A stretch of DNA of 50,083 nt from Nitrospirota bacterium (GCA_013151495.1 JAADIE010000109.1:1-50083), one strand, 5' to 3'; shown: positions 13,252 to 46,279, counted from the first letter of the stretch. Notes: generated by a model from the letters alone, not told the origin. Translations and numbers: made by a program.

Positions 13252-13367
13252 CTCTATACTCCCTCAACTCAAATTACTTTATCTTATCAAATCAGAAAAA
13301 GAATAACAAATAATTCTTCCATTAACTTAAATTGCCAATAAAAAAAGGGGGCATAAACTTAATTAAA

Positions 13368-13498
13368 GTAGAAGGGTATAGGGTTTGAGCGGTTTCAGGC
13401 AATCTAATAGCTTCACCAGGAGGGTGAAGTAGATTGCCTGCCTCGGAGCAGGCCATGGATGGCCTGCGAGAATGAGCGAAAAGCCTATACCCTTCTAC
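13368..13498 (+). repeat. structured intergenic element, copy 1 (candidate ncRNA family)
   Basis: A perfect 15-bp closing stem pairs GTAGAAGGGTATAGG with CCTATACCCTTCTAC. The 5' junction is TTTGAGCGGTTT. Hairpin P2 (13396-13440) has an 11-bp stem, a 5'-side bulge ATAG, a 7-bp stem, and loop AGGAG. It is followed by CCTCGGAG, hairpin P3 (CAGGCC-ATGGAT-GGCCTG), and the 3' junction CGAGAATGAGCGAAAAG. Confidence 0.8.
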
Positions 13499-13609
13499 CC
13501 TATTACTGACTGATGAATTAATCGGCAATTTAGAGTTTTATGAAGCGGTTGTAACTTTTCCTGACTTTAAGATATTATTGTTAGTCAGTCTTTTAAGCTG
13601 GAGGCTCTT

Positions 13610-14617
13610 GTGTTTAAACCCTTTGAAACAACAGGTATAGGAAGTCTTCCTTTTACAGACCCTGAAGAGGCTGTAAAGCTTGTACTTGAAGGTTGCGACA
13701 TCCCCTTCTGGCCTCAGCTTCCCAAGCGCTCTTTCAAGGAATACATGATTCCTCAGTACTGTGAGGGCTTCCCATGTATTGAGGTGGATGAGGAAAAAAA
13801 GCAGGTCAGTCTAAAGGCCACTACTCAGGAGGATTTAAATGCCTTTTATGAGGCAATATCAAAGGGTGAGGCCTTTCCTATTTCCGGTGACTTTGCTGCA
13901 GGTTTTTATGCCTTTAAAGAGGCCCTTAAAAAAGGCTCAACATATGCAATTAAGGGACAGATAACCGGCCCTCTGACCTTCAGCCTTGGATTAAAGGACC
14001 CGGAAGGCAGATATCTGTACTTTAACGAGGAACTGCGAGAGATTGCCTTGATGCTCCTTTCAGCCAAGGCACGCTGGCAGATTGAAGTATTAAAGGAATA
14101 TGCAGAACAGGTTATAATGTTTATTGATGAGCCTATCCTTTCAGCCCTTGGAAGTAGCAGTTACCTTGGTGTCAGCACTGATGAGGCCGGAAGGATGCTC
14201 AAAACCCTGGTGGAGGAAATTCATTCAGCTGGCGCGATATCAGGGATTCATTGCTGCGGAAAGGCTGACTGGGCCCTGGTGATCGAAACCGGTGTAAAGA
14301 TACTTAATTTTGATGCCTTTGATTATTTTGATGCCTTTAATGCCTATTCAGGTGAGATTGCCTCTTTTGTTCAGCGGGGAGGGCTTATTGCATGGGGGAT
14401 TATTCCGACAACCGATGCTATTAACACCACCAGTCTGGATAAACTCAAAGAAAAACTCACAGGGCAGATAGAGACCCTTGGCAGGGTGTTACCAGTAGAT
14501 ACCATAAAGAGCCACTCCCTCCTTACCCCTTCCTGCGGAGCTGGTAGCAGAACTGTGCAGGAGGCCAGAAGGGTTTTTCAGTTACTGGTCAGCCTTAAGG
14601 AGGCCATGCTTTCATGA
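13610..14617 (+). CDS. MetE-C-terminal/URO-D-like (cobalamin-independent methionine synthase family) protein
   Basis: 335 aa. The GTG start follows GGAGG. Zinc-ligand-like blocks GIHCCGKADW and LLTPSCGAG are typical of the MetE catalytic-domain family. The substrate is unknown. Confidence 0.6.
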   Translation: MFKPFETTGIGSLPFTDPEEAVKLVLEGCDIPFWPQLPKRSFKEYMIPQYCEGFPCIEVDEEKKQVSLKATTQEDLNAFYEAISKGEAFPISGDFAAGFYAFKEALKKGSTYAIKGQITGPLTFSLGLKDPEGRYLYFNEELREIALMLLSAKARWQIEVLKEYAEQVIMFIDEPILSALGSSSYLGVSTDEAGRMLKTLVEEIHSAGAISGIHCCGKADWALVIETGVKILNFDAFDYFDAFNAYSGEIASFVQRGGLIAWGIIPTTDAINTTSLDKLKEKLTGQIETLGRVLPVDTIKSHSLLTPSCGAGSRTVQEARRVFQLLVSLKEAMLS

Positions 14618-18565: not shown

Positions 18566-19705
18566 TCAGGCAGGAAGATTTATTTTGAAGACACTGCCAG
18601 GGCCATCTTCTGGGTCTTCAACCCAGATCTTACCCCCCAGGGTCTCAGTGGCCATCTTTGAAAAGGTAAGGCCAAGCCCTGCTGAACCAACACTGCCTCT
18701 TTGTCCGGATAGTTGAAACTGTTCAAAGGGGATAAAGATTCGCTCTTTAAGCTGATCGGGCACTCCAGGGCCCCTGTCACGTACTGCAATATTTATTTGA
18801 TTTCCACCAACTCTTACATCAATATCTACCTGCTCCCTCTCGGGGCTATAACGGATGGCATTTGATAGTAGATTTCCCAGTATACGCTTGAACAGGTCAG
18901 GGTCAGTATTTGCATAACTTCTGTTTTTAATGGCGAGTTTTGTTTTCATCTCAACTCCTTTGATGGAGGCAGAAATCCTGAAAAGCTCAATAGTCTCTGC
19001 AACAAGGGACTCTATATCCACGGTCATTATCTTGGGTTTTAATTTTCCCTCCGATAGCTTGTATACATCAAGGATATTCTGTATCATGTTCATCATCCTA
19101 TCGCAGGCCACTATGGTCTTGGCTATCAGTAGAGACTGCTTTTCATCAAGGCAGTCCTGCCTTAACTTCAGCAGCTCAAGGTTTCCATAAATCCCGGTCA
19201 ATGGGTTCTTCAGGTCATGGATAATCATGTGTATTAGTTCTTCCTTTGCCTTCTGAATCCTGTACAGTTTCTCATTCATCCTTTCCAGTTCTCTGTTTTT
19301 CCTGTATAGCCTCCTCTGAAAAGCTGATATCCTCAGCAGAGACCTGATCCTGATTATTAGTTCAGTTTTGTTAATGGGCTTTGAGATGAAATCATCGGCA
19401 CCTGCCTCTGCAGCCCGCTCCTTGTCAGAGGTTTCCTCAAGGGCTGTAACCATTATGATTGGAACATGTATTTGACCCTGCATCTGTCTTATCCTTCTAC
19501 AGACCTCAAAGCCATCCATCTCAGGCATCATTATATCAAGCAGTATCAGGTCGGGCCTGAACTCCTTAAACAACTTGAGGGCTTCTTTGCCAGAGGCTGC
19601 CTTCAGTATCTTAAATCCATGAGGGCTTAATATAGCCTCAAGTAAAGAGAGGTTCTTTCTATCATCATCAACAATTAATAACAGGCTTGCCTTTGCTCCC
19701 TCCAT
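18566..19705 (-). CDS. hybrid response-regulator receiver / sensor histidine kinase
   Basis: The N-terminal REC domain has VDDD...LILLDIMMPEMDG...K. The HisKA H-box is IIHDLKNPL. The HATPase boxes are LLSNAIRY, RDRGPGVP, and GLGLTF. Confidence 0.85.
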   Translation of the reverse strand: MEGAKASLLLIVDDDRKNLSLLEAILSPHGFKILKAASGKEALKLFKEFRPDLILLDIMMPEMDGFEVCRRIRQMQGQIHVPIIMVTALEETSDKERAAEAGADDFISKPINKTELIIRIRSLLRISAFQRRLYRKNRELERMNEKLYRIQKAKEELIHMIIHDLKNPLTGIYGNLELLKLRQDCLDEKQSLLIAKTIVACDRMMNMIQNILDVYKLSEGKLKPKIMTVDIESLVAETIELFRISASIKGVEMKTKLAIKNRSYANTDPDLFKRILGNLLSNAIRYSPEREQVDIDVRVGGNQINIAVRDRGPGVPDQLKERIFIPFEQFQLSGQRGSVGSAGLGLTFSKMATETLGGKIWVEDPEDGPGSVFKINLPA

Positions 19706-22566: not shown

Positions 22567-22971
22567 TTATACCTCCCTGTCTCCGGGATTGTGCCATAAA
22601 AGCCCATCAACATATCCAAAATGTTTATCGTAACTGGCAACCATAATGCCAAATCTCATAGCAGTTGCCGATATCCACATATCATTATTGGGAATTGGTC
22701 TGCCCTTCTGTTTCAATCTCTTGTAAATCTCAGAATAAAAATAGGCAGTCTTTTCATCAATCTCTACTAATTGAACCCTGGGACTGTCAAGAAATTCATT
22801 CAACTCATAAAAATTCTTCTTTCTATGTCTGCTAACCTGAATACCACAAAGAATCTCGCCAAGTACAATTGTACTTATATAGATACGATGTGCCTCCTGC
22901 AATAGTTCTATTGCCTCCTGTTTGTTGCCTTTAAAGGCAGCGTACACATTTGTATCAATCAAGATATCCAT
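22567..22971 (-). CDS. vapC: PIN-domain toxin VapC
   Basis: 134 aa. The four acidic PIN positions are in the usual contexts: ILIDTNV, VLGEIL, PNNDMWISA, and SYDKHF. Confidence 0.85.
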   Translation of the reverse strand: MDILIDTNVYAAFKGNKQEAIELLQEAHRIYISTIVLGEILCGIQVSRHRKKNFYELNEFLDSPRVQLVEIDEKTAYFYSEIYKRLKQKGRPIPNNDMWISATAMRFGIMVASYDKHFGYVDGLLWHNPGDREV

Positions 22972-24523: not shown

Positions 24524-25198
24524 TCACAACTCCTTTATTACCTGTGAAAAAACCTTATGTGCAATCCGAACAGCCCTCTTTGCATCTCTCTTTGTAGGTG
24601 CTCCCATGGGCAGCAAGCCCTCTTCACCAGAATACCTGCCTGTATAGATAGAATCCATGAAATCTATCTCTTCATCCTTTAACTTTAACTTTAAACCATA
24701 GTCCTGACCAATGGCTAATAATCTCCTGATCTTATGTGTCTTTTCAAGTTCCCATCCTTTACTCAGCAGAAAGCATTTGATTATTTTTTCTACTGCCTGT
24801 TGAGCACTGTAGCAGGCACCTCTGTAAAATCCTCCCTCAAGCAGATATTCAGCCTGTCTGAGGTCCTCCTCAGCAGACCGTCTCCAATACTTCAGGGCAC
24901 CTTTCATATAAATCAGTCTCCCTTCTTTCTGTATTTTCCTTAAAAACGGGCTTCCCTGTGTAAGGAGTTTTTTTAGTTCACCTCTTGAAACAGTAAGAAC
25001 ATCTATAGAATATTTTTTATAATAAGGATAGAGAGTCTTTAATATAGTTTGTCGGTCCTTTTTTCTGCTCACCACGAGAAGGTCCACATCTTCTCCAGAG
25101 CCTTTTCGTGCAACTGAGCCAAAAAGCAGTATTGCGTCTGGATTTACTGCCTTCCTGATACTATCTGCAATCTCATATACATCCACTAATGCAGGCAT
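24524..25198 (-). CDS. fused minimal nucleotidyltransferase (MNT-like) plus HEPN domain protein
   Basis: The N-terminus has [19 protein letters not shown] (GS...D.D NTase motif). The C-terminal half has the HEPN pattern [34 protein letters not shown]......KTHKIRRL.... Confidence 0.72.
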
Positions 25199-25783: not shown

Positions 25784-26556
25784 CTCTGTAGCTCATCAAG
25801 CTCTCTTTTAATCTCTGAAACCTCTTCCACGGTTTCAGGACTTATCTCATAAGGGGGCTTACCTTTTATATCAGCCTGCATTATCTCGGCTCTGAAACTG
25901 ATGGCCCCGAGGAACTCCATCTTGCCTGTTTCTTTTTTGATAAACTCCACATCCTCTGGTGTATGAATCTTGTTTGCCACCACATAGACCCGCTTTACAC
26001 CAAGTCCTTCTGCCATCTCAGCAACCTGATGGGCTGTCTGGATGGAACGCTGCCCTGGCTCTACCACAACAATAAAAGCATCCACCCCCTGAGCAGTTCC
26101 GCGGGTCAGGTGCTCAATGCCTGCCTCCATATCAACCACAACCACCTCATCCCGCTCCACCACCAGGTGGCTTAGCAGCCTGCGAAGAAATACATTTTCA
26201 GGGCAGTAACAGCCAGATGCAGCCTCTTTTGACTTACCCATTACAAGAAGGGTTATACCATCAACCCTGTAACCAAACTCCTCTGGAATATCGTCAACCT
26301 TTGGATTTAGTTTAAATATTCCTCCCATGCTCCCGGGGCGTGCCCCGGTGCGTTCGGCAATCAGGTCCTTCATTTCCGAGATAGGCCTGATAGAGGCTAT
26401 CTGTTCGGCAGTAAGTCCAAAGGCCTGGGCAAGGTTGGCATCAGGGTCGGCATCAACAGCCACAACCCTTTTGCCCTCTTTTGCATAAAGGTAACTAAGG
26501 ATACTTGAAAGGGTGGTTTTACCCACCCCTCCCTTGCCAGTAATTGCAATTTTCAT
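25780..26556 (-). CDS. cooC: CooC/AcsF-type nickel-insertion ATPase (CO dehydrogenase maturation factor)
   Basis: The product starts MKIAITGKGGVGKTT (deviant Walker A) and contains DADPDANL and a GCYCPEN Cys motif in a MinD/ParA-like fold. ATG 26556 is preferred over 26571. Confidence 0.78.
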   Translation of the reverse strand: MKIAITGKGGVGKTTLSSILSYLYAKEGKRVVAVDADPDANLAQAFGLTAEQIASIRPISEMKDLIAERTGARPGSMGGIFKLNPKVDDIPEEFGYRVDGITLLVMGKSKEAASGCYCPENVFLRRLLSHLVVERDEVVVVDMEAGIEHLTRGTAQGVDAFIVVVEPGQRSIQTAHQVAEMAEGLGVKRVYVVANKIHTPEDVEFIKKETGKMEFLGAISFRAEIMQADIKGKPPYEISPETVEEVSEIKRELDELQR

Positions 26557-26639
26557 AAAAAATTCTAACATTACCTTTAAAAACCTGTCAAAAAGGGAAT
26601 ATACCCCAAAAATGCCAATTAGATTTGTCAGTCAATTGT

Positions 26640-26826
26640 AAGGCAGCAGGGTATAGGCTTTTCGCTCATTCTCGCAGGCCATCCATGGCCTCAGTGCCCC
26701 GAAAAGTCTTTGACTTTTCGGGGGCCCCCTGCTCCGAGGCAGGCAATCTACTTCACCCTCCTGGTGAAGATTTTAGAAAGATTTTAGATTGCCTGAAACC
26801 GCTTAAACCCTATACCCTCCTGCCTT
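26640..26826 (-). repeat. structured intergenic element, copy 2 (opposite orientation to copy 1)
   Basis: The reverse complement shares long identical runs with copy 1: GCGGTTTCAGGCAATCTA, CTTCACCAGGAGGGTGAAGTAGATTGCCTGCCTCGGAGCAGG, and GGCCATGGATGGCCTGCGAGAATGAGCGAAAAGCCTATACCCT. The 18-bp closing stem has one mismatch. There are two insertions relative to copy 1. Confidence 0.8.
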
Positions 26827-26875
26827 TATAATATGGGCTTTTTTCTATCGACAAGTTAGAGTATAATTAAATCTT

Positions 26876-27745
26876 ATGAAAATCCAGAAGGTTATCGATT
26901 TTCATACCCATGTCTTTCCTGATGAGATCGCTCCACGGGCCTTAAAGGCCCTATCAGAGCACTCCGGTCCTTACAAGCCCTGCACCGATGGAACCCTGAG
27001 GGGGCTTCTTGAGTCAATGGACAGGGCAGGGATAGGGCTCAGTGTTGTTGCAAGCATAGCCACTAAACCTGGCCAGGCATGGCCCATACTGGAGTTTTCA
27101 AAAAGGATTAAATCATCCCGAATATACCCTCTGGTTTCTTTTCATCCCCAAAACAGCCTTGACGAGGTCAGAAGGCTGATTGCCGAGGCCAGCCATACCG
27201 GTATCAAGGGGGTAAAGCTCCACCCAATGTATCAGGATTTTTCGATTGACTCAGAAGATATGTTTCCCTACTATGAACTACTGATCAATGAGGGCTTTTT
27301 TGTTGTCTTTCATACAGGCTACGATATTGCCTTCCCTGGTAACCTGCAGGCCTCTGTAGATCGTGTAGCCCGTCTGGCTGAGACCTTCAAAGACCTGGTG
27401 ATAGTAACCACCCATACAGGTGGCTGGAGGCAATGGGAGATGCTAAGTCTTTTAACCGGGTTTGAAAACATCTATACCGACATCTCTATGACCGTTACCG
27501 AGACAGGAAAAGAAAGATTTTCTGAGTTGCTAAAGGGCTTTCCACCAGAGAGAATATTCTTTGGCACCGACAGCCCCTGGACAGATCAAAGGGAGATGGT
27601 GAACATAATAAATGAACTCGACTTTACATCAGAGCTAAAGGAGGCAATACTCTACAAAAACGCCCTTAATTTCCTGAAAAAATACCACCCCACCTCAATC
27701 TATAATCATAAATCTGAAATCACAAATAACAAATCTAAAATCTGA
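26876..27745 (+). CDS. amidohydrolase-family (TIM-barrel metal-dependent hydrolase) protein
   Basis: 289 aa. It has the N-terminal IDFHTHVFPD metal-binding motif and a later HTGGW and GTDSPW. The last ~12 codons are encoded by the heptamer repeat. Confidence 0.72.
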   Translation: MKIQKVIDFHTHVFPDEIAPRALKALSEHSGPYKPCTDGTLRGLLESMDRAGIGLSVVASIATKPGQAWPILEFSKRIKSSRIYPLVSFHPQNSLDEVRRLIAEASHTGIKGVKLHPMYQDFSIDSEDMFPYYELLINEGFFVVFHTGYDIAFPGNLQASVDRVARLAETFKDLVIVTTHTGGWRQWEMLSLLTGFENIYTDISMTVTETGKERFSELLKGFPPERIFFGTDSPWTDQREMVNIINELDFTSELKEAILYKNALNFLKKYHPTSIYNHKSEITNNKSKI

Positions 27746-27786
27746 AATCTTAAATCTTAAATCTTAAATCTAAAATCTTAAATTAT
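27710..27786. repeat. heptanucleotide tandem repeat (AAATCTN) x 11
   Basis: Read directly, the units are AAATCTG AAATCAC AAATAAC AAATCTA AAATCTG AAATCTT AAATCTT AAATCTT AAATCTA AAATCTT AAATTAT. The array spans the stop of the amidohydrolase gene (TGA 27743-27745) and ends 1 nt before the convergent paaK-like stop. Confidence 0.9.
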
Positions 27787-33690: not shown

Positions 33691-34698
33691 TTATCTACCC
33701 ACCTTTACCTCTGAGCGGTCATGTTCATTTTTTGGTCTCGAGAAGATCATCCTGCCAGCTGTGGTCTGTAGCACGCTCGTAACAGAAACATCTATGTTTT
33801 TGCCAATGAATCTCCTTCCGTTTTCCACAACCACCATGGTGCCATCATCAAGATAGGCAACGCCCTGATTGTGCTCCTTACCCTCTTTCAGAACAAAGAC
33901 CTTCATGGTCTCTCCAGGCAATACCACTGGTTTAAGGGCATTGGCCAGCTCATTGATATTAAGTACGGTAACACCCTGCAGGGCCGCAACCTTGTTCAGA
34001 TTGAAGTCATTGGTTAAGACCTTTGCATCAAGCATCTTTGCAAGGGCAACGAGCTTGGCATCGACCTCTTTGATCTGGGGAAAGTCCTCCTCCACAATCT
34101 TTACATCAATGTTAGACATCTTCTGCATCCTGTGCAGTATATCAAGCCCACGACGACCACGGGCCCTCCTCAGGGAGTCGGCCGAATCGGCTATATGCTG
34201 CAGTTCCTGCAATATAAATTGGGGGACAATAAGGGTTCCTTCAATAAAACCGGTCTCACATATGTCGGCAATCCTTCCATCAATAATAACACTTGTATCC
34301 AGGATCTTCTGATTGCTTTCCATGGCCTGGCCCTTCATCAGCCTCAACAGCCCGGTGGCAGTTAGATTTTTTCCCCTTGCAAAACCAATAAGCATACCAC
34401 CATAACCAAACAATGCATTCAGTATAAATGTAACCATGCTTACATAATCTGGCATCAGGGGCTTAATCGGCATAATCAGCAATCTGGCAAATATGATCCC
34501 GAATAAAAGACCTAAAAAGGCACCAATGAATCTGCCAAGGTTGACCCTCTGAAAAAAACGATCTAAAAATAAGGTAATTATTCCGAGGGCCAAACCTGAA
34601 AGGGCACCAGCCATAGAGTATCCGAATTTGCTACCAAGCAAATAGCCCCCTGCCAGAAAGGAAACAATTATCAGAGCCCTTAAAAGAAGCAAAAACAC
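33691..34698 (-). CDS. PIN/TRAM domain membrane protein (YacL-like)
   Basis: 335 aa. It has about four N-terminal TM helices, a PIN domain ([12 protein letters not shown]), and a C-terminal TRAM-like domain. The conserved yacL-ispD-ispF gene order is present. Confidence 0.83.
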
Positions 34699-34767: not shown

Positions 34768-34944
34768 AAAACAGGGGATATTAATTTTGAGCGGTTTTAA
34801 TTTTGCGAAAGATTTGCCATGGAGGGCAAATCGCAAAATTTCCTCGGAGGCAGACACGGGGTCCCCGAAAAGTCGATAGACTTTTCGGGGTAGAGACTTG
34901 GATGTCTGCCGAGAATGAGACGAAAAATTAATATCCCCTGTTTT
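34768..34944 (+). repeat. structured intergenic element, copy 3 (diverged copy with compensatory stems)
   Basis: A perfect 21-bp closing stem pairs AAAACAGGGGATATTAATTTT with AAAATTAATATCCCCTGTTTT. It has the same junction strings as copies 1 and 2: TTTTGAGCGGTTTT, TCCTCGGAG, and CGAGAATGAGACGAAAAA. P2 has an 8-bp stem, a 5' bulge GAAA, an 8-bp stem, and loop ATGGAG. P3 closes with GCAGACA/TGTCTGC. Confidence 0.78.
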
Positions 34945-34998: not shown

Positions 34999-36450
34999 TC
35001 AGGGTGTAATTGCCAGGTAAAACCGCTTGCCCCTCCTGTTTACAAGCAAGACCACTGTATCTTCCTCTTTTATGTTGTTTAGCGCCTCCTTCCAGCTATC
35101 ATAATCCTTTATGTCCTTGCTGTCAATCTCCTGGATTATATCACCCTTTTTTAGTCCTGCATCATGGGCCGGGCTGTCGGTCTGAACATCCACGACCACA
35201 ACTCCCTTTTCCTTCAATGACACTCCTAATTGTCTGGCTATTGCAGGGGTAATGTCGGTTACAGTAACACCGTAAAGGGCATTGGCCACTTCGGCCTGAA
35301 CTGTATAGTCCTCAGCAAACTCGTTGAATTCCTTGGGCAATTCAGCCACAACCACTGTCAGTCTCTTTGGTCTTCTGTTTCTGATTACCTCTATGGTCTT
35401 CCTGGATCCTATCGGACTCTGGGCAACCAGGTTTCTGAGCATTGAGACATTTTCCACAGTCTTATTATCAAATCTGACTATTACATCCCCTCTTTTAATA
35501 CCAGCCCTGTCAGCAGGGCTTCCCCTCAGCACATCACTAACCAGAGCGCCTGTGGTCTTGTTTATACCGAACTCCCTTGCAAGCTCAGGTGTCAGGTCCT
35601 GAATGGTTACTCCAAGCCATCCCCTCACCACCTTGCCCTTTTTCATGAGCTGCTCAATCACGGCCCTCACCATATTGCTTGGCACTGCAAAACCGATTCC
35701 CTGATAGCCCCCACTGCGGGAAAAAATGGCTGTATTGATACCTACAAGCTCTCCTTTTGTATTAACCAGAGGCCCACCTGAGTTGCCCGGATTTATAGCG
35801 GCATCGGTCTGGATAAAGTCCTCATAATCAGCAATTCCCACATTTGCCCGCCCAACTGCACTTACAATCCCCATTGTTACAGTGTGGCTAAGGCCAAAGG
35901 GATTACCAATGGCAAGCACGAATTCGCCAACGCTCAGGGTGTCTGAATTGCCCCAGGGAATGGTGGGTAGCCCGCTTTCTTTTATCTTTATCAAAGCAAT
36001 GTCTGTCTTTGGATCAGCACCCACAACCCTGGCTTTAAAACTCCTTCTGTCATAAAGCGTTACCCTTATCTCGTCGGCCTGTTCAATAACATGATGATTT
36101 GTAATAATATAACCATCCTGAGAGATGATAACCCCTGAGCCAAGGCTTTGCTCCTTGTACTGTCTTGGCCCCCTGTGAAAAGGGTTAAAAAAGTCGAAAA
36201 AACCATCATTTAGTGTACCGGTGCCCTGGTATCTCTTGGTTGTAGAAATGTTAACCACAGCAGGAGATACAGACCTGACTACATCGGCAAAGTCCCTGTT
36301 TATGGATCTAACATTTTCTGAAACCTCAGGCTGTCTGTAGGGCAGATAAGTTGGTTTATTAATACGCTCGTATAATGTATAATAGGTTAAGCCCCCTAAG
36401 AGGAAACCTATAAGTAAAATTAATAGACCTAAAAGTATATTCTTTTTCAT
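34999..36450 (-). CDS. htrA: periplasmic serine endoprotease DegP/HtrA family (two PDZ domains)
   Basis: 483 aa. It has an N-terminal anchor and catalytic-triad contexts ITNHHV, DIALIK, and GNSGGPLV, followed by two PDZ-like repeats. Confidence 0.93.
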   Translation of the reverse strand: MKKNILLGLLILLIGFLLGGLTYYTLYERINKPTYLPYRQPEVSENVRSINRDFADVVRSVSPAVVNISTTKRYQGTGTLNDGFFDFFNPFHRGPRQYKEQSLGSGVIISQDGYIITNHHVIEQADEIRVTLYDRRSFKARVVGADPKTDIALIKIKESGLPTIPWGNSDTLSVGEFVLAIGNPFGLSHTVTMGIVSAVGRANVGIADYEDFIQTDAAINPGNSGGPLVNTKGELVGINTAIFSRSGGYQGIGFAVPSNMVRAVIEQLMKKGKVVRGWLGVTIQDLTPELAREFGINKTTGALVSDVLRGSPADRAGIKRGDVIVRFDNKTVENVSMLRNLVAQSPIGSRKTIEVIRNRRPKRLTVVVAELPKEFNEFAEDYTVQAEVANALYGVTVTDITPAIARQLGVSLKEKGVVVVDVQTDSPAHDAGLKKGDIIQEIDSKDIKDYDSWKEALNNIKEEDTVVLLVNRRGKRFYLAITP

Positions 36451-46181: not shown

Positions 46182-46279
46182 GGGAGCGGATGGGGTTCTG
46201 GTGTCCCCCCCGGACTTCAAATCCGGTGTTCCCTGCCACAAGTGGGGAAGGTGGGTTCGATTCCCACACGCTCCCGCCA
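46182..46279 (+). tRNA. selC: tRNA-Sec (anticodon UCA)
   Basis: 98 nt, GGGAGCGG...CGCTCCC-G-CCA. The anticodon arm is CCGGA-CTTCAAA-TCCGG with TCA at 46217-46219. The extra arm has an 8-bp stem (TTCCCTGC/GTGGGGAA, including G-U pairs) with loop CACAA. The T arm is GTGGG-TTCGATT-CCCAC. The 7-8 bp acceptor ends with an encoded CCA. It was folded by hand. Confidence 0.9.

Follow-up and report, generated by a model that had tools for sequence, protein, structure and literature searches.

Enterobacterial genomes carry non-coding repeats such as ERIC/IRU and REP/BIME, high-copy imperfect palindromes of 30–130 nt in short intergenic spacers, which occur in both orientations, are co-transcribed with their neighbours and are kept at orthologous sites across species. 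Bacterial MITEs (miniature inverted-repeat transposable elements), e.g., Correia, RUP, BOX and Nezha, are small, multi-copy and non-autonomous, and have complementary ends. A typical MITE derives from an insertion sequence, measures about 50–500 bp, ends in conserved inverted repeats to which a transposase binds and lies within target-site duplications of fixed length. Here, we describe a structured intergenic element in a 50,083-nt stretch of DNA from a Nitrospirota bacterium (GCA_013151495.1, JAADIE010000109.1:1–50083; hereafter the window), where copy 2 of the element, at 26640–26826 on the minus strand, is a near-identical inverted version of copy 1 at 13368–13498 on the plus strand. With moderate confidence, we read copy 2 as a member of a large family of structured intergenic repeats that are non-autonomous and either selfish or domesticated. 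The family itself is rather likely to be a high-copy, non-coding one, interspersed in genomes of the Thermodesulfovibrionia (Nitrospirota) and defined by a three-way-junction core and not by its termini.

An inverted-repeat search of the window pairs 13362–13518 with 26623–26829, and copy 1 aligns with the reverse complement of copy 2 almost without difference except for two insertions. Both results agree with a first-pass annotation, made from the sequence alone, which had called copy 2 at these coordinates as an inverted copy with a near-identical core. The exact runs common to the two copies measure 14, 20, 42 and 44 nt (18, 42 and 43 nt had been given before), and matches of 42–44 nt within 50 kb exclude chance as their source. 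Homology reaches beyond the structured part, to 13321–13532 and 26608–26867 in a local alignment, with ~97% identity in the interior and only ~70% in the homologous flanks. Copies 1 and 2 each have a long closing stem and two internal hairpins, with z-scores near −9, and both strands of the element fold far better than shuffled sequence (z ∼ −9). The earlier count of two copies proved too low: a covariance model found a third, more diverged copy at 34768–34944 on the plus strand, in which the sequences of the stems P1 and P2 differ from those of copies 1 and 2 while the junction strands are the same, and the family has more than 100 members with covarying stems across a bacterial class. With filters off, searching the entire window returned no copy beyond these three. 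The element is non-coding and varies in size between 93 and 187 nt.

The count of more than 100 applies to the loci and contigs around matches; many copies are orthologues and hence not independent. An exact 18-mer from the junction strand J3/1, run against one genome per species, matched 75 loci, of which ∼45 are true homologues, nearly all in Thermodesulfovibrionia assemblies. Each Nitrospirota genome assembly holds 5–9 matched loci, and single matches were obtained in one Gemmatimonadota, one Desulfobacteraceae (Desulfobacterota) and one Parcubacteria genome. In 630 kb, the covariance model (R1) recovered 57 copies scoring 41 bits or more, some of them without the 18-mer, and about 60 copies altogether were found in Thermodesulfovibrionia genome assemblies. 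An independent scan of metagenome contigs, anchored on the 5′ motif alone, gave 101 matches, 72 of which are full copies with the 3′ block 70–162 nt downstream. Contig depth also reflects a high copy number: in the source sample, the summed depth of copy 1 is 285–434 compared to 12.9 in its flank, and element copies reach 20–30 times the depth of their flanks, with short-read contigs breaking at each copy. Depth spikes in the source-study runs at 13284–13767 and 26352–26835 mark copies 1 and 2. A separate spike at 19092–19575, within a response-regulator/histidine-kinase gene (166–171 compared to ∼13), is probably due to a conserved domain common to other community members.

No Rfam 15 family matched the element at gathering thresholds in the window and four further loci, and at E ≤ 10 the element itself returned only noise; a known RNA family was rejected on this basis. 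A phage origin was rejected on the basis of zero matches in the viral contigs scanned. Full-text searches of the open literature, using sequence strings, Nitrospirae structured RNA, Thermodesulfovibrio repeats and MITE as terms, found no description of the element.

Read along the folded strand, the consensus consists of the P1 5′ arm, CUUU-GA-GC-GG-YUU, P2, (A)C-CUC-GGA-GY, an optional P3, GC-GAG-AAUGA-GC-GA-AAAG and the P1 3′ arm. P1 has a mean length of ∼21 bp and proceeds inward through UUU/AAA, tandem G.A and a GC/GC step. Copies without a full P3 carry a GAA, GCA or GGA triloop instead, so that the minimal P3 is C-GNA-G. The junction strands UGAGCGG, CCUCGGAG and CGAGAAUGAGCGA, which comprise ∼30 nt in total, are nearly invariant. 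In a clean alignment of 21 sequences, tested against 500 shuffles and slid-partner controls, 97.7% of the cells are paired and 16 pairs are altered on both sides; none of the 500 shuffles reaches these values, and slid partners give ∼50% pairing. Changes on both sides affect five of the nine P2 pairs, and the closing pairs of P3 covary in variant copies (C-G, U-A and G-C at one position, G-C to A-U at the next). Unguided prediction with RNAalifold yields the same helices. Among the 60 unique elements of the 5′-anchored metagenome set, GAGAAUGAG is kept in 59–60 and the following CGA in 57, indicating that conservation of the junction is not an artefact of the probe.

Within the element, conservation is lowest at the termini and highest in the interior junction. 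P1 ends are always complementary and have a loose sequence consensus, ATACAGGAGGGAAYUGUCUUU ... AAAGAUUGUUCCCUCCUGUAU. Such a consensus of the arms is what one would find in an ordinary MITE of the DDE type, in which P1 would correspond to the terminal inverted repeats of an insertion sequence (IS; e.g., IS4- or IS1-like with 9–13-bp duplications) that has been lost or not sampled, the copies would be old, most duplications would have decayed and the internal structure would be incidental. We consider this origin unlikely, although some of the flank data speak for it. Direct repeats of at least 9 nt flank 4 of 87 copies (11 nt in L010; 9 nt in L052, L079 and L086; L numbers denote our loci) where ∼0.7 would be expected. 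Moreover, presence/absence polymorphism is known at one locus, L153, where the filled allele would fit a 13-nt duplication CTATGAATTTATC whose left copy has decayed. Against it, a 10-mer similarity test detected no overall duplication signal (p = 0.10), and 72% of the 87 copies in the anchored flank test lack a direct repeat of even 4 nt; in line with the absence of flanking direct repeats noted by eye in the first pass, the family has no general target-site duplication. A conserved interior between variable ends is the reverse of what recognition by a transposase would lead us to expect, and compensatory changes in the stems and a strand-specific excess of G.U pairs fit poorly with an incidental structure.

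The 40 larger open reading frames (ORFs) scanned in the window belong to ordinary cellular families and none encodes a transposase or integrase, confirming the first-pass annotation on this point. Neither a transposase nor a related IS is present among ∼40 annotated flanking genes, and no split or cargo-bearing copy was found in ∼1.2 Mb of loci. Candidates for autonomous or cargo-bearing versions were rejected, as the orphan halves are chance matches in coding sequences or truncated copies. Of the features by which an ordinary MITE had been expected to reveal itself, many copies were found, but neither clear target-site duplications nor, in the loci examined, an autonomous IS.

At the pyrK-pyrD junction of L153 (869–1028), a 160-nt segment bearing the element is present or absent within an aquifer population. 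One metatranscriptome contig (run X5) skips the segment, as does one contig from DNA run X24 of that study, which makes the skip a genomic allele and not a product of splicing or processing; in the empty allele, pyrK and pyrD show the overlap usual for coupled genes (ATGGATTTATCGGTAA). RNA splicing of the element was rejected for the same two reasons, the skip in DNA and the restored overlap. In L010 and L068, the pyrK-pyrD junction carries an element in the opposite orientation, with an 11-nt direct repeat on its flanks.

Across 57 copies, G.U and A.C pairs stand at 96:13, indicating that one strand is the folded one, and in each of the three pairs tested the sense strand gives a more stable fold than its complement. 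Relative to co-directional neighbours, the folded strand is antisense in 36 cases and sense in 15 (p = 0.005; 96 copies with unique arms), the remaining contexts being convergent (14) and divergent (6). The G.U excess stays on one strand whichever way the neighbouring genes run, as would be expected of a family of small RNAs, e.g., protein-sponging or scaffold RNAs, in which every copy would be transcribed from a promoter of its own on the folded strand. Metatranscriptome contigs covering elements and the GGA motifs that window-lineage copies carry in their P2 and P3 loops are consistent with such a role, as is a weak promoter-like TTGCCA-16-TAAACT that stops 9 nt short of P1 in copy 1. In copy 2, the homologous flank has TTGTCG..TATAAA; as copies 1 and 2 have this one flank in common, their promoter-like sites count as a single observation, and the TTGTCG-N17-TTATAA promoter previously proposed upstream of copy 2 failed a consensus scan. 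However, many copies lie only 5–30 nt from flanking stop or start codons, with no space for a promoter or terminator, there is neither a conserved upstream promoter motif nor a terminator after the element, and the RNA evidence is unstranded. We therefore regard a small RNA family as improbable.

Alternatively, the fold could act as single-stranded DNA, i.e., as a site where folded DNA is nicked or recombined by an HUH-type enzyme (RAYT, IS200/IS605-like) or a tyrosine recombinase, as in REP, attC and CTX attP. Several observations point this way: copies are oriented independently of transcription, with the folded strand antisense to mRNAs in most cases, a duplication is missing from the majority of copies, and interiors are bounded by the direct repeat GAGCG and are swapped between P1 frames in a few pairs. 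The minimal P3, C-GNA-G (with GAA, GCA or GGA), is moreover what we take to be a hyperstable DNA mini-hairpin motif. On the other hand, DNA hairpins tolerate G.T pairs poorly, yet such pairs are frequent in the element, no target tetranucleotide is conserved on either side of the copies, and neither an HUH nor an integrase gene was seen nearby. Empty hairpin targets were likewise lacking: insertion of the core into pre-existing hairpins was rejected because 370 kb contained no empty P1-like hairpins and no UUU-GAGCG-AAA loops. Finally, copies within a few kb of each other point both ways (+, −, + in the window; also in L014, L015, L024, L041 and L079), so that orientation is not fixed relative to replication. 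A DNA function of this kind appears unlikely.

The genomic context of the family argues against a gene-specific regulator. According to mechanical ORF calls, the neighbours are unrelated housekeeping genes (murC/murB, ilvD with an ilvB-like thiamine pyrophosphate enzyme, pyrK/pyrD, hisD/tsaC, lspA/lgt/tsaD, trpD), and the Parcubacteria copy adjoins dnaB/cysS. Elements often occupy the whole spacer from a stop codon to the next ribosome-binding site. Within the window, copy 2 faces an operon of cooC, 5-formyl-tetrahydrofolate cyclo-ligase, folE, folD, the small subunit of methylenetetrahydrofolate reductase, metF and panB, and copy 1 faces a gene for a MetE-like methionine synthase. That two copies point at functionally related genes from divergent intergenic regions, and have aptamer-like conserved junctions and covarying stems, could suggest a riboswitch or cis-regulatory leader of one-carbon genes. 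This is extremely improbable, since the promoter-like sites of both downstream genes lie between element and gene. The only good promoter near copy 2 is that of cooC (near-consensus TTGACA-18-TAGAAT with an extended TG), which ends 5 nt before an ATG at 26556 that opens the canonical CooC N-terminus MKIAITGKGGVGKT; this position implies a leaderless mRNA, and judged from these signals cooC appears to be leaderless. The promoter-like motif of the metE-like gene and the following TGTTAGTCAG are kept in a relative (L004) that is without the element. Syntenic metE-like loci of three relatives (66–68% protein identity) are without it in the comparison of syntenic loci suggested in the first pass; upstream synteny is broken at these loci so that insertion boundaries are not readable there. 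Copy 3 and most other family members lie between unrelated genes, often in antisense orientation. A folate- or S-adenosylmethionine (SAM)-type riboswitch for one-carbon genes was accordingly rejected on family context, mixed orientation and promoter positions.

The element was also rejected as an intrinsic terminator, as there is no T-run after P1 and, with the exception of copy 3, no A-run before it; the flanks of the copies have no terminators either. Copy 3 is flanked by genes for an HtrA-like protease (34999–36450, −) and a PIN-TRAM protein (33691–34698, −) and is antisense to both. The A-run lies immediately 5′ of it and would read as a hairpin followed by a T-run on the strand of the neighbouring genes.

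Orthologous copies common to different species (L010/L068, L018/L051, L015/L066, L043/L076) show compensatory or G.U-to-G-C changes in P1, and truncated or internally deleted copies occur at orthologous sites 5′ of ccdA (L074, L077) and of tsaB (L108, L155, L156) as well as in L047. A few paralogues have near-identical interiors including the P2 loop (2 differences in 54 unpaired columns) but unrelated self-complementary P1 arms, e.g., L018 and L079:5723, or L051 and L007:1604. Conversely, the orthologues L018 and L051 are identical in arms and flanks and differ in their interiors. Interiors shared under unrelated arms, together with ∼97% identity of the interior compared to ∼70% of the flanks in copies 1 and 2, point to gene conversion limited to the interior, or to selection. 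The first-pass annotation had attributed the likeness of copies 1 and 2 to recent duplication or mobility; the near-identity holds, but this explanation is too simple for so large a difference between interior and flanks. The simplest account of the aligned sequences is that interior-limited conversion, and not very recent transposition, would have kept the two copies alike.

Both insertions of copy 2 occur at positions where the family tolerates variation. Insertion (a), a perfect tandem duplication of an 11-nt unit, sits in the asymmetric bulge of P2 and makes it larger, and a contig of a related population (run X3) is without exactly 11 nt at 26767. Because the duplication is perfect and the gap in that contig measures 11 nt, it is attributed to replication slippage: insertion (a) is a recent slippage event that is polymorphic between strains. 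An enlarged bulge and slippage had been proposed before, albeit as a 15-nt replacement derived from the AAATCTN unit of a nearby microsatellite; the repeated unit is 11 nt long and not a heptamer. The microsatellite itself is real. Tandem Repeats Finder (TRF) places it at 27704–27783 (AATCTTA × 11.4), spanning the 3′ end of the amidohydrolase ORF (26876–27745) and the following spacer. In two relatives (L001:3760–3990, L002:3800–3990), the spacer upstream of the metE-like gene is taken up by other 7-mer arrays (TTGCGTT.., CCCTACA..), and heptamer repeats appear to be a habit of the lineage that hosts copy 2.

Insertion (b) adds a module 5′ of P3. Its 12-bp hairpin was correctly described in the first-pass annotation but is not private to copy 2, as the CCCCGAAAAGTC..GACTTTTCGGGG hairpin is also found within P3 of copy 3 (34863–34890). 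Contig depth sums to 207 at 26694 and to 127 at 26720, compared to ∼14 in the flank (9–15 times). Several copies in other lineages have a different small hairpin, CCCCCUU..AAGGGGG, within their P2 loop (CCCCCTT..AAGGGGG in L015, L026, L036, L059 and L079). Taken together, the P3 module of copies 2 and 3 and the P2-loop hairpins elsewhere indicate that hairpin modules at tolerated sites are a trait of the family. Further palindromic repeat families, with GTCATTCCCGC..GGGAATC-type and GTCATTGCGAG..CTCGCAATGAC hairpins, occur in or beside element copies (L128, L161; L037:7142–7180). Relative to copy 1, the alignment shows a single compensatory U-A to C-G change and a single new G.G mismatch in the outer part of P1 in copy 2. 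The parts of copy 2 and the related features are listed in Table 1.

Table 1. Coordinates of the three element copies, the parts of copy 2 and the adjacent promoter-like sites in the window.
Feature	Position	Strand	Description
Copy 2, whole element, P1 to P1	26640–26826	−	187 nt; covariance model 68 bits; −98.4 kcal/mol, z = −9.2
Copy 1	13368–13498	+	131 nt; without P2 duplication and without P3 module; covariance model 75 bits
Copy 3	34768–34944	+	177 nt; covariance model 68 bits, E = 5e-15; P1 and P2 diverged; variant J3/1 CCGAGAAUGAGACGA; hairpin module within P3
Full stretch homologous to copy 1	26608–26867	−	element plus ∼41 nt upstream and ∼32 nt downstream, roughly 70% identity
P1 5′ arm AAGGCAGGAGGGUAUAGGGUUU	26805–26826	−	pairs with 26640–26661
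Junction J1/2 AAGCGGUUU	26796–26804	−	conserved block in alignments; family consensus UGAGCGGYUU
P2 hairpin	26740–26795	−	proximal stem CAGGCAAUCU/AGAUUGCCUG, asymmetric bulge, distal stem CUUCACC-AGGAG-GGUGAAG (fold)
Insertion (a)	26767–26788		perfect 11-nt tandem duplication, AAGATTTTAGA × 2; TRF: period 11, 2.0 copies, 100% match
Junction J2/3 CCUCGGAGC	26731–26739	−	conserved block; at most one mismatch in 43/60 copies (5′-anchored metagenome set)
Insertion (b)	26692–26730	−	39-nt module 5′ of P3; alignment gap compared to copy 1
Module hairpin CCCCGAAAAGUC-AAA-GACUUUUCGGGG	26697–26723	−	12 bp; reads CCCCGAAAAGTC-TTT-GACTTTTCGGGG on the window strand
P3 hairpin AGGCCA-UGGA-UGGCCU	26676–26691	−	fold
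Junction J3/1 GCGAGAAUGAGCGA	26662–26675	−	GAGAAUGAG conserved in 5′-anchored metagenome copies
P1 3′ arm AAAGCCUAUACCCUGCUGCCUU	26640–26661	−	pairs with 26805–26826
Promoter-like site of cooC, TTGACA-18-TAGAAT with TG	26562–26591	−	downstream of copy 2, outside the element
Promoter-like site of metE-like gene, TTGTAA-18-TATTAT	13549–13578	+	downstream of copy 1, outside the element

Further observations concern the genes near the copies. A PIN-domain gene (22567–22971, −) and a HEPN/nucleotidyltransferase gene (24524–25198, −), which resemble a toxin-antitoxin pair, are interleaved in the cooC/folE/folD/metF/panB operon. The MetE-like protein (13610–14617, +) has 335 aa, matches no Pfam family and matches an NCBIfam methionine synthase only weakly. 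Its homologues number more than 5000, those with organism names being from Nitrospirota, and the protein may be a ‘core’ methionine synthase. Its gene is followed by tmk and mutS2 in every relative examined. A tRNA-Sec gene is located at 46182–46275 (+; Rfam RF01852, 75.7 bits).

Based on these data, we propose that the family would have spread as a selfish, non-autonomous element whose junction core may be recognised, as single-stranded RNA or DNA, by a putative trans-acting protein. After insertion, copies would form stable hairpins within operon transcripts or next to them and be retained or tolerated as such, and their interiors might occasionally be homogenised by gene conversion anchored on the conserved junction blocks. 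Conversion of this kind would leave copies 1 and 2 alike inside and unlike in their arms and flanks. The differences of copy 2 would then be secondary, an 11-nt slippage duplication in a tolerated bulge and a hairpin module at the variable P3 position.

Several points weigh against this proposal. Conservation of ∼30 junction nt across phyla exceeds the need of a passive repeat and is suggestive of an activity. In the loci examined, neither a partner protein nor an autonomous element was found, and the family lacks both a general target-site duplication and a conserved flanking tetranucleotide. Mobility is deduced from the distribution of the copies and from one locus alone with filled and empty alleles, where the element may have been either gained or lost. 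Orthologous copies are stable across species and the interiors of most paralogues have diverged, as only four non-orthologous pairs with different arms among the 118 copies reach 93% identity in the interior; this may be an old family that has lost its mobility. Over half of the G.U excess stems from a UUG/UUG motif in P1 of one subfamily, and since this motif is conserved there, the excess is partly inherited and not selected locus by locus. Evidence for transcription consists of thin, unstranded metatranscriptome contigs that cover elements.

If the junction were instead an active single-stranded module, which could be a ribozyme, a scaffold that recruits proteins or a site for the recombination of folded DNA, it would define a mobile element of a new kind, with an exchanged GAGCG-bounded interior cassette, locus-specific arms and neither the logic of terminal inverted repeats and target-site duplications nor a linked transposase. 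We think this quite unlikely. For the structured, non-autonomous repeat family that we favour, extrapolation would, if it holds, give tens to perhaps more than 100 copies per Thermodesulfovibrionia genome, and these bacteria are widespread anaerobes of aquifers, sediments and hot springs. The conservation of the element resembles that of a functional RNA or folded DNA, whereas its genomic behaviour resembles that of a selfish repeat; this contradiction could expose a new recognition partner or mechanism of mobility. In practice, the element breaks short-read assemblies of carrier genomes at every copy and can mislead annotation into riboswitch calls beside metabolic operons. It is also a lineage marker, and the covariance model is ready for annotating carrier genomes.

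Like ERIC/IRU and REP/BIME, with whose general descriptions we compare it here, the element is intergenic and high-copy, occurs in both orientations and is conserved at orthologous sites. Unlike them, it has a branched three-way-junction core with ∼30 near-invariant unpaired nt and a variable, covarying closing stem, it has no evident sequence similarity to them and no GTAG/CGTC head, and its hosts belong to another phylum. REP/REPIN units are 20–40-nt palindromes with a GTAG/CGTC head and flank a RAYT gene, whereas the units described here are branched, measure 93–187 nt and start with GTAG in only a few copies. With MITEs it has in common modular internal insertions (cf. the BOX modules), decayed copies and occasional flanking direct repeats; it differs in the lack of a general target-site duplication and of a matching IS among the loci examined, in termini that are less conserved than the interior, and in the G.U excess and compensatory changes, which point to selection on a single-stranded fold. 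The motif surveys of the Breaker lab define ‘mobile/repeat sequence candidates’, which are said to be frequently associated with genes for transposases or integrases (PMC11109978). Our element fits this definition but differs in that no such gene was seen nearby, and the text of that paper contains neither ‘Thermodesulfovibrio’ nor ‘Nitrospir’.

As in riboswitch aptamers and small ribozymes, a helix junction with conserved unpaired nucleotides is combined with covarying stems and with optional hairpins at tolerated positions. The element did not match the Rfam families THF-I/II, SAM, ZTP, hammerhead, twister, pistol, hatchet, HEARO or group II intron and, unlike riboswitches, has no fixed gene association or position in 5′ untranslated regions. 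The IS200/IS605-derived PATE, which make no duplication, differ from it by a conserved 4–5-nt target 5′ of the left end and by two subterminal hairpins in place of a closed three-way junction. Integron attC sites, which follow promoterless cassettes in arrays, have conserved R″/R′ ends (GTTRRRY) and a variable centre; in our element, which resides among core housekeeping genes, the ends vary and the centre is conserved.

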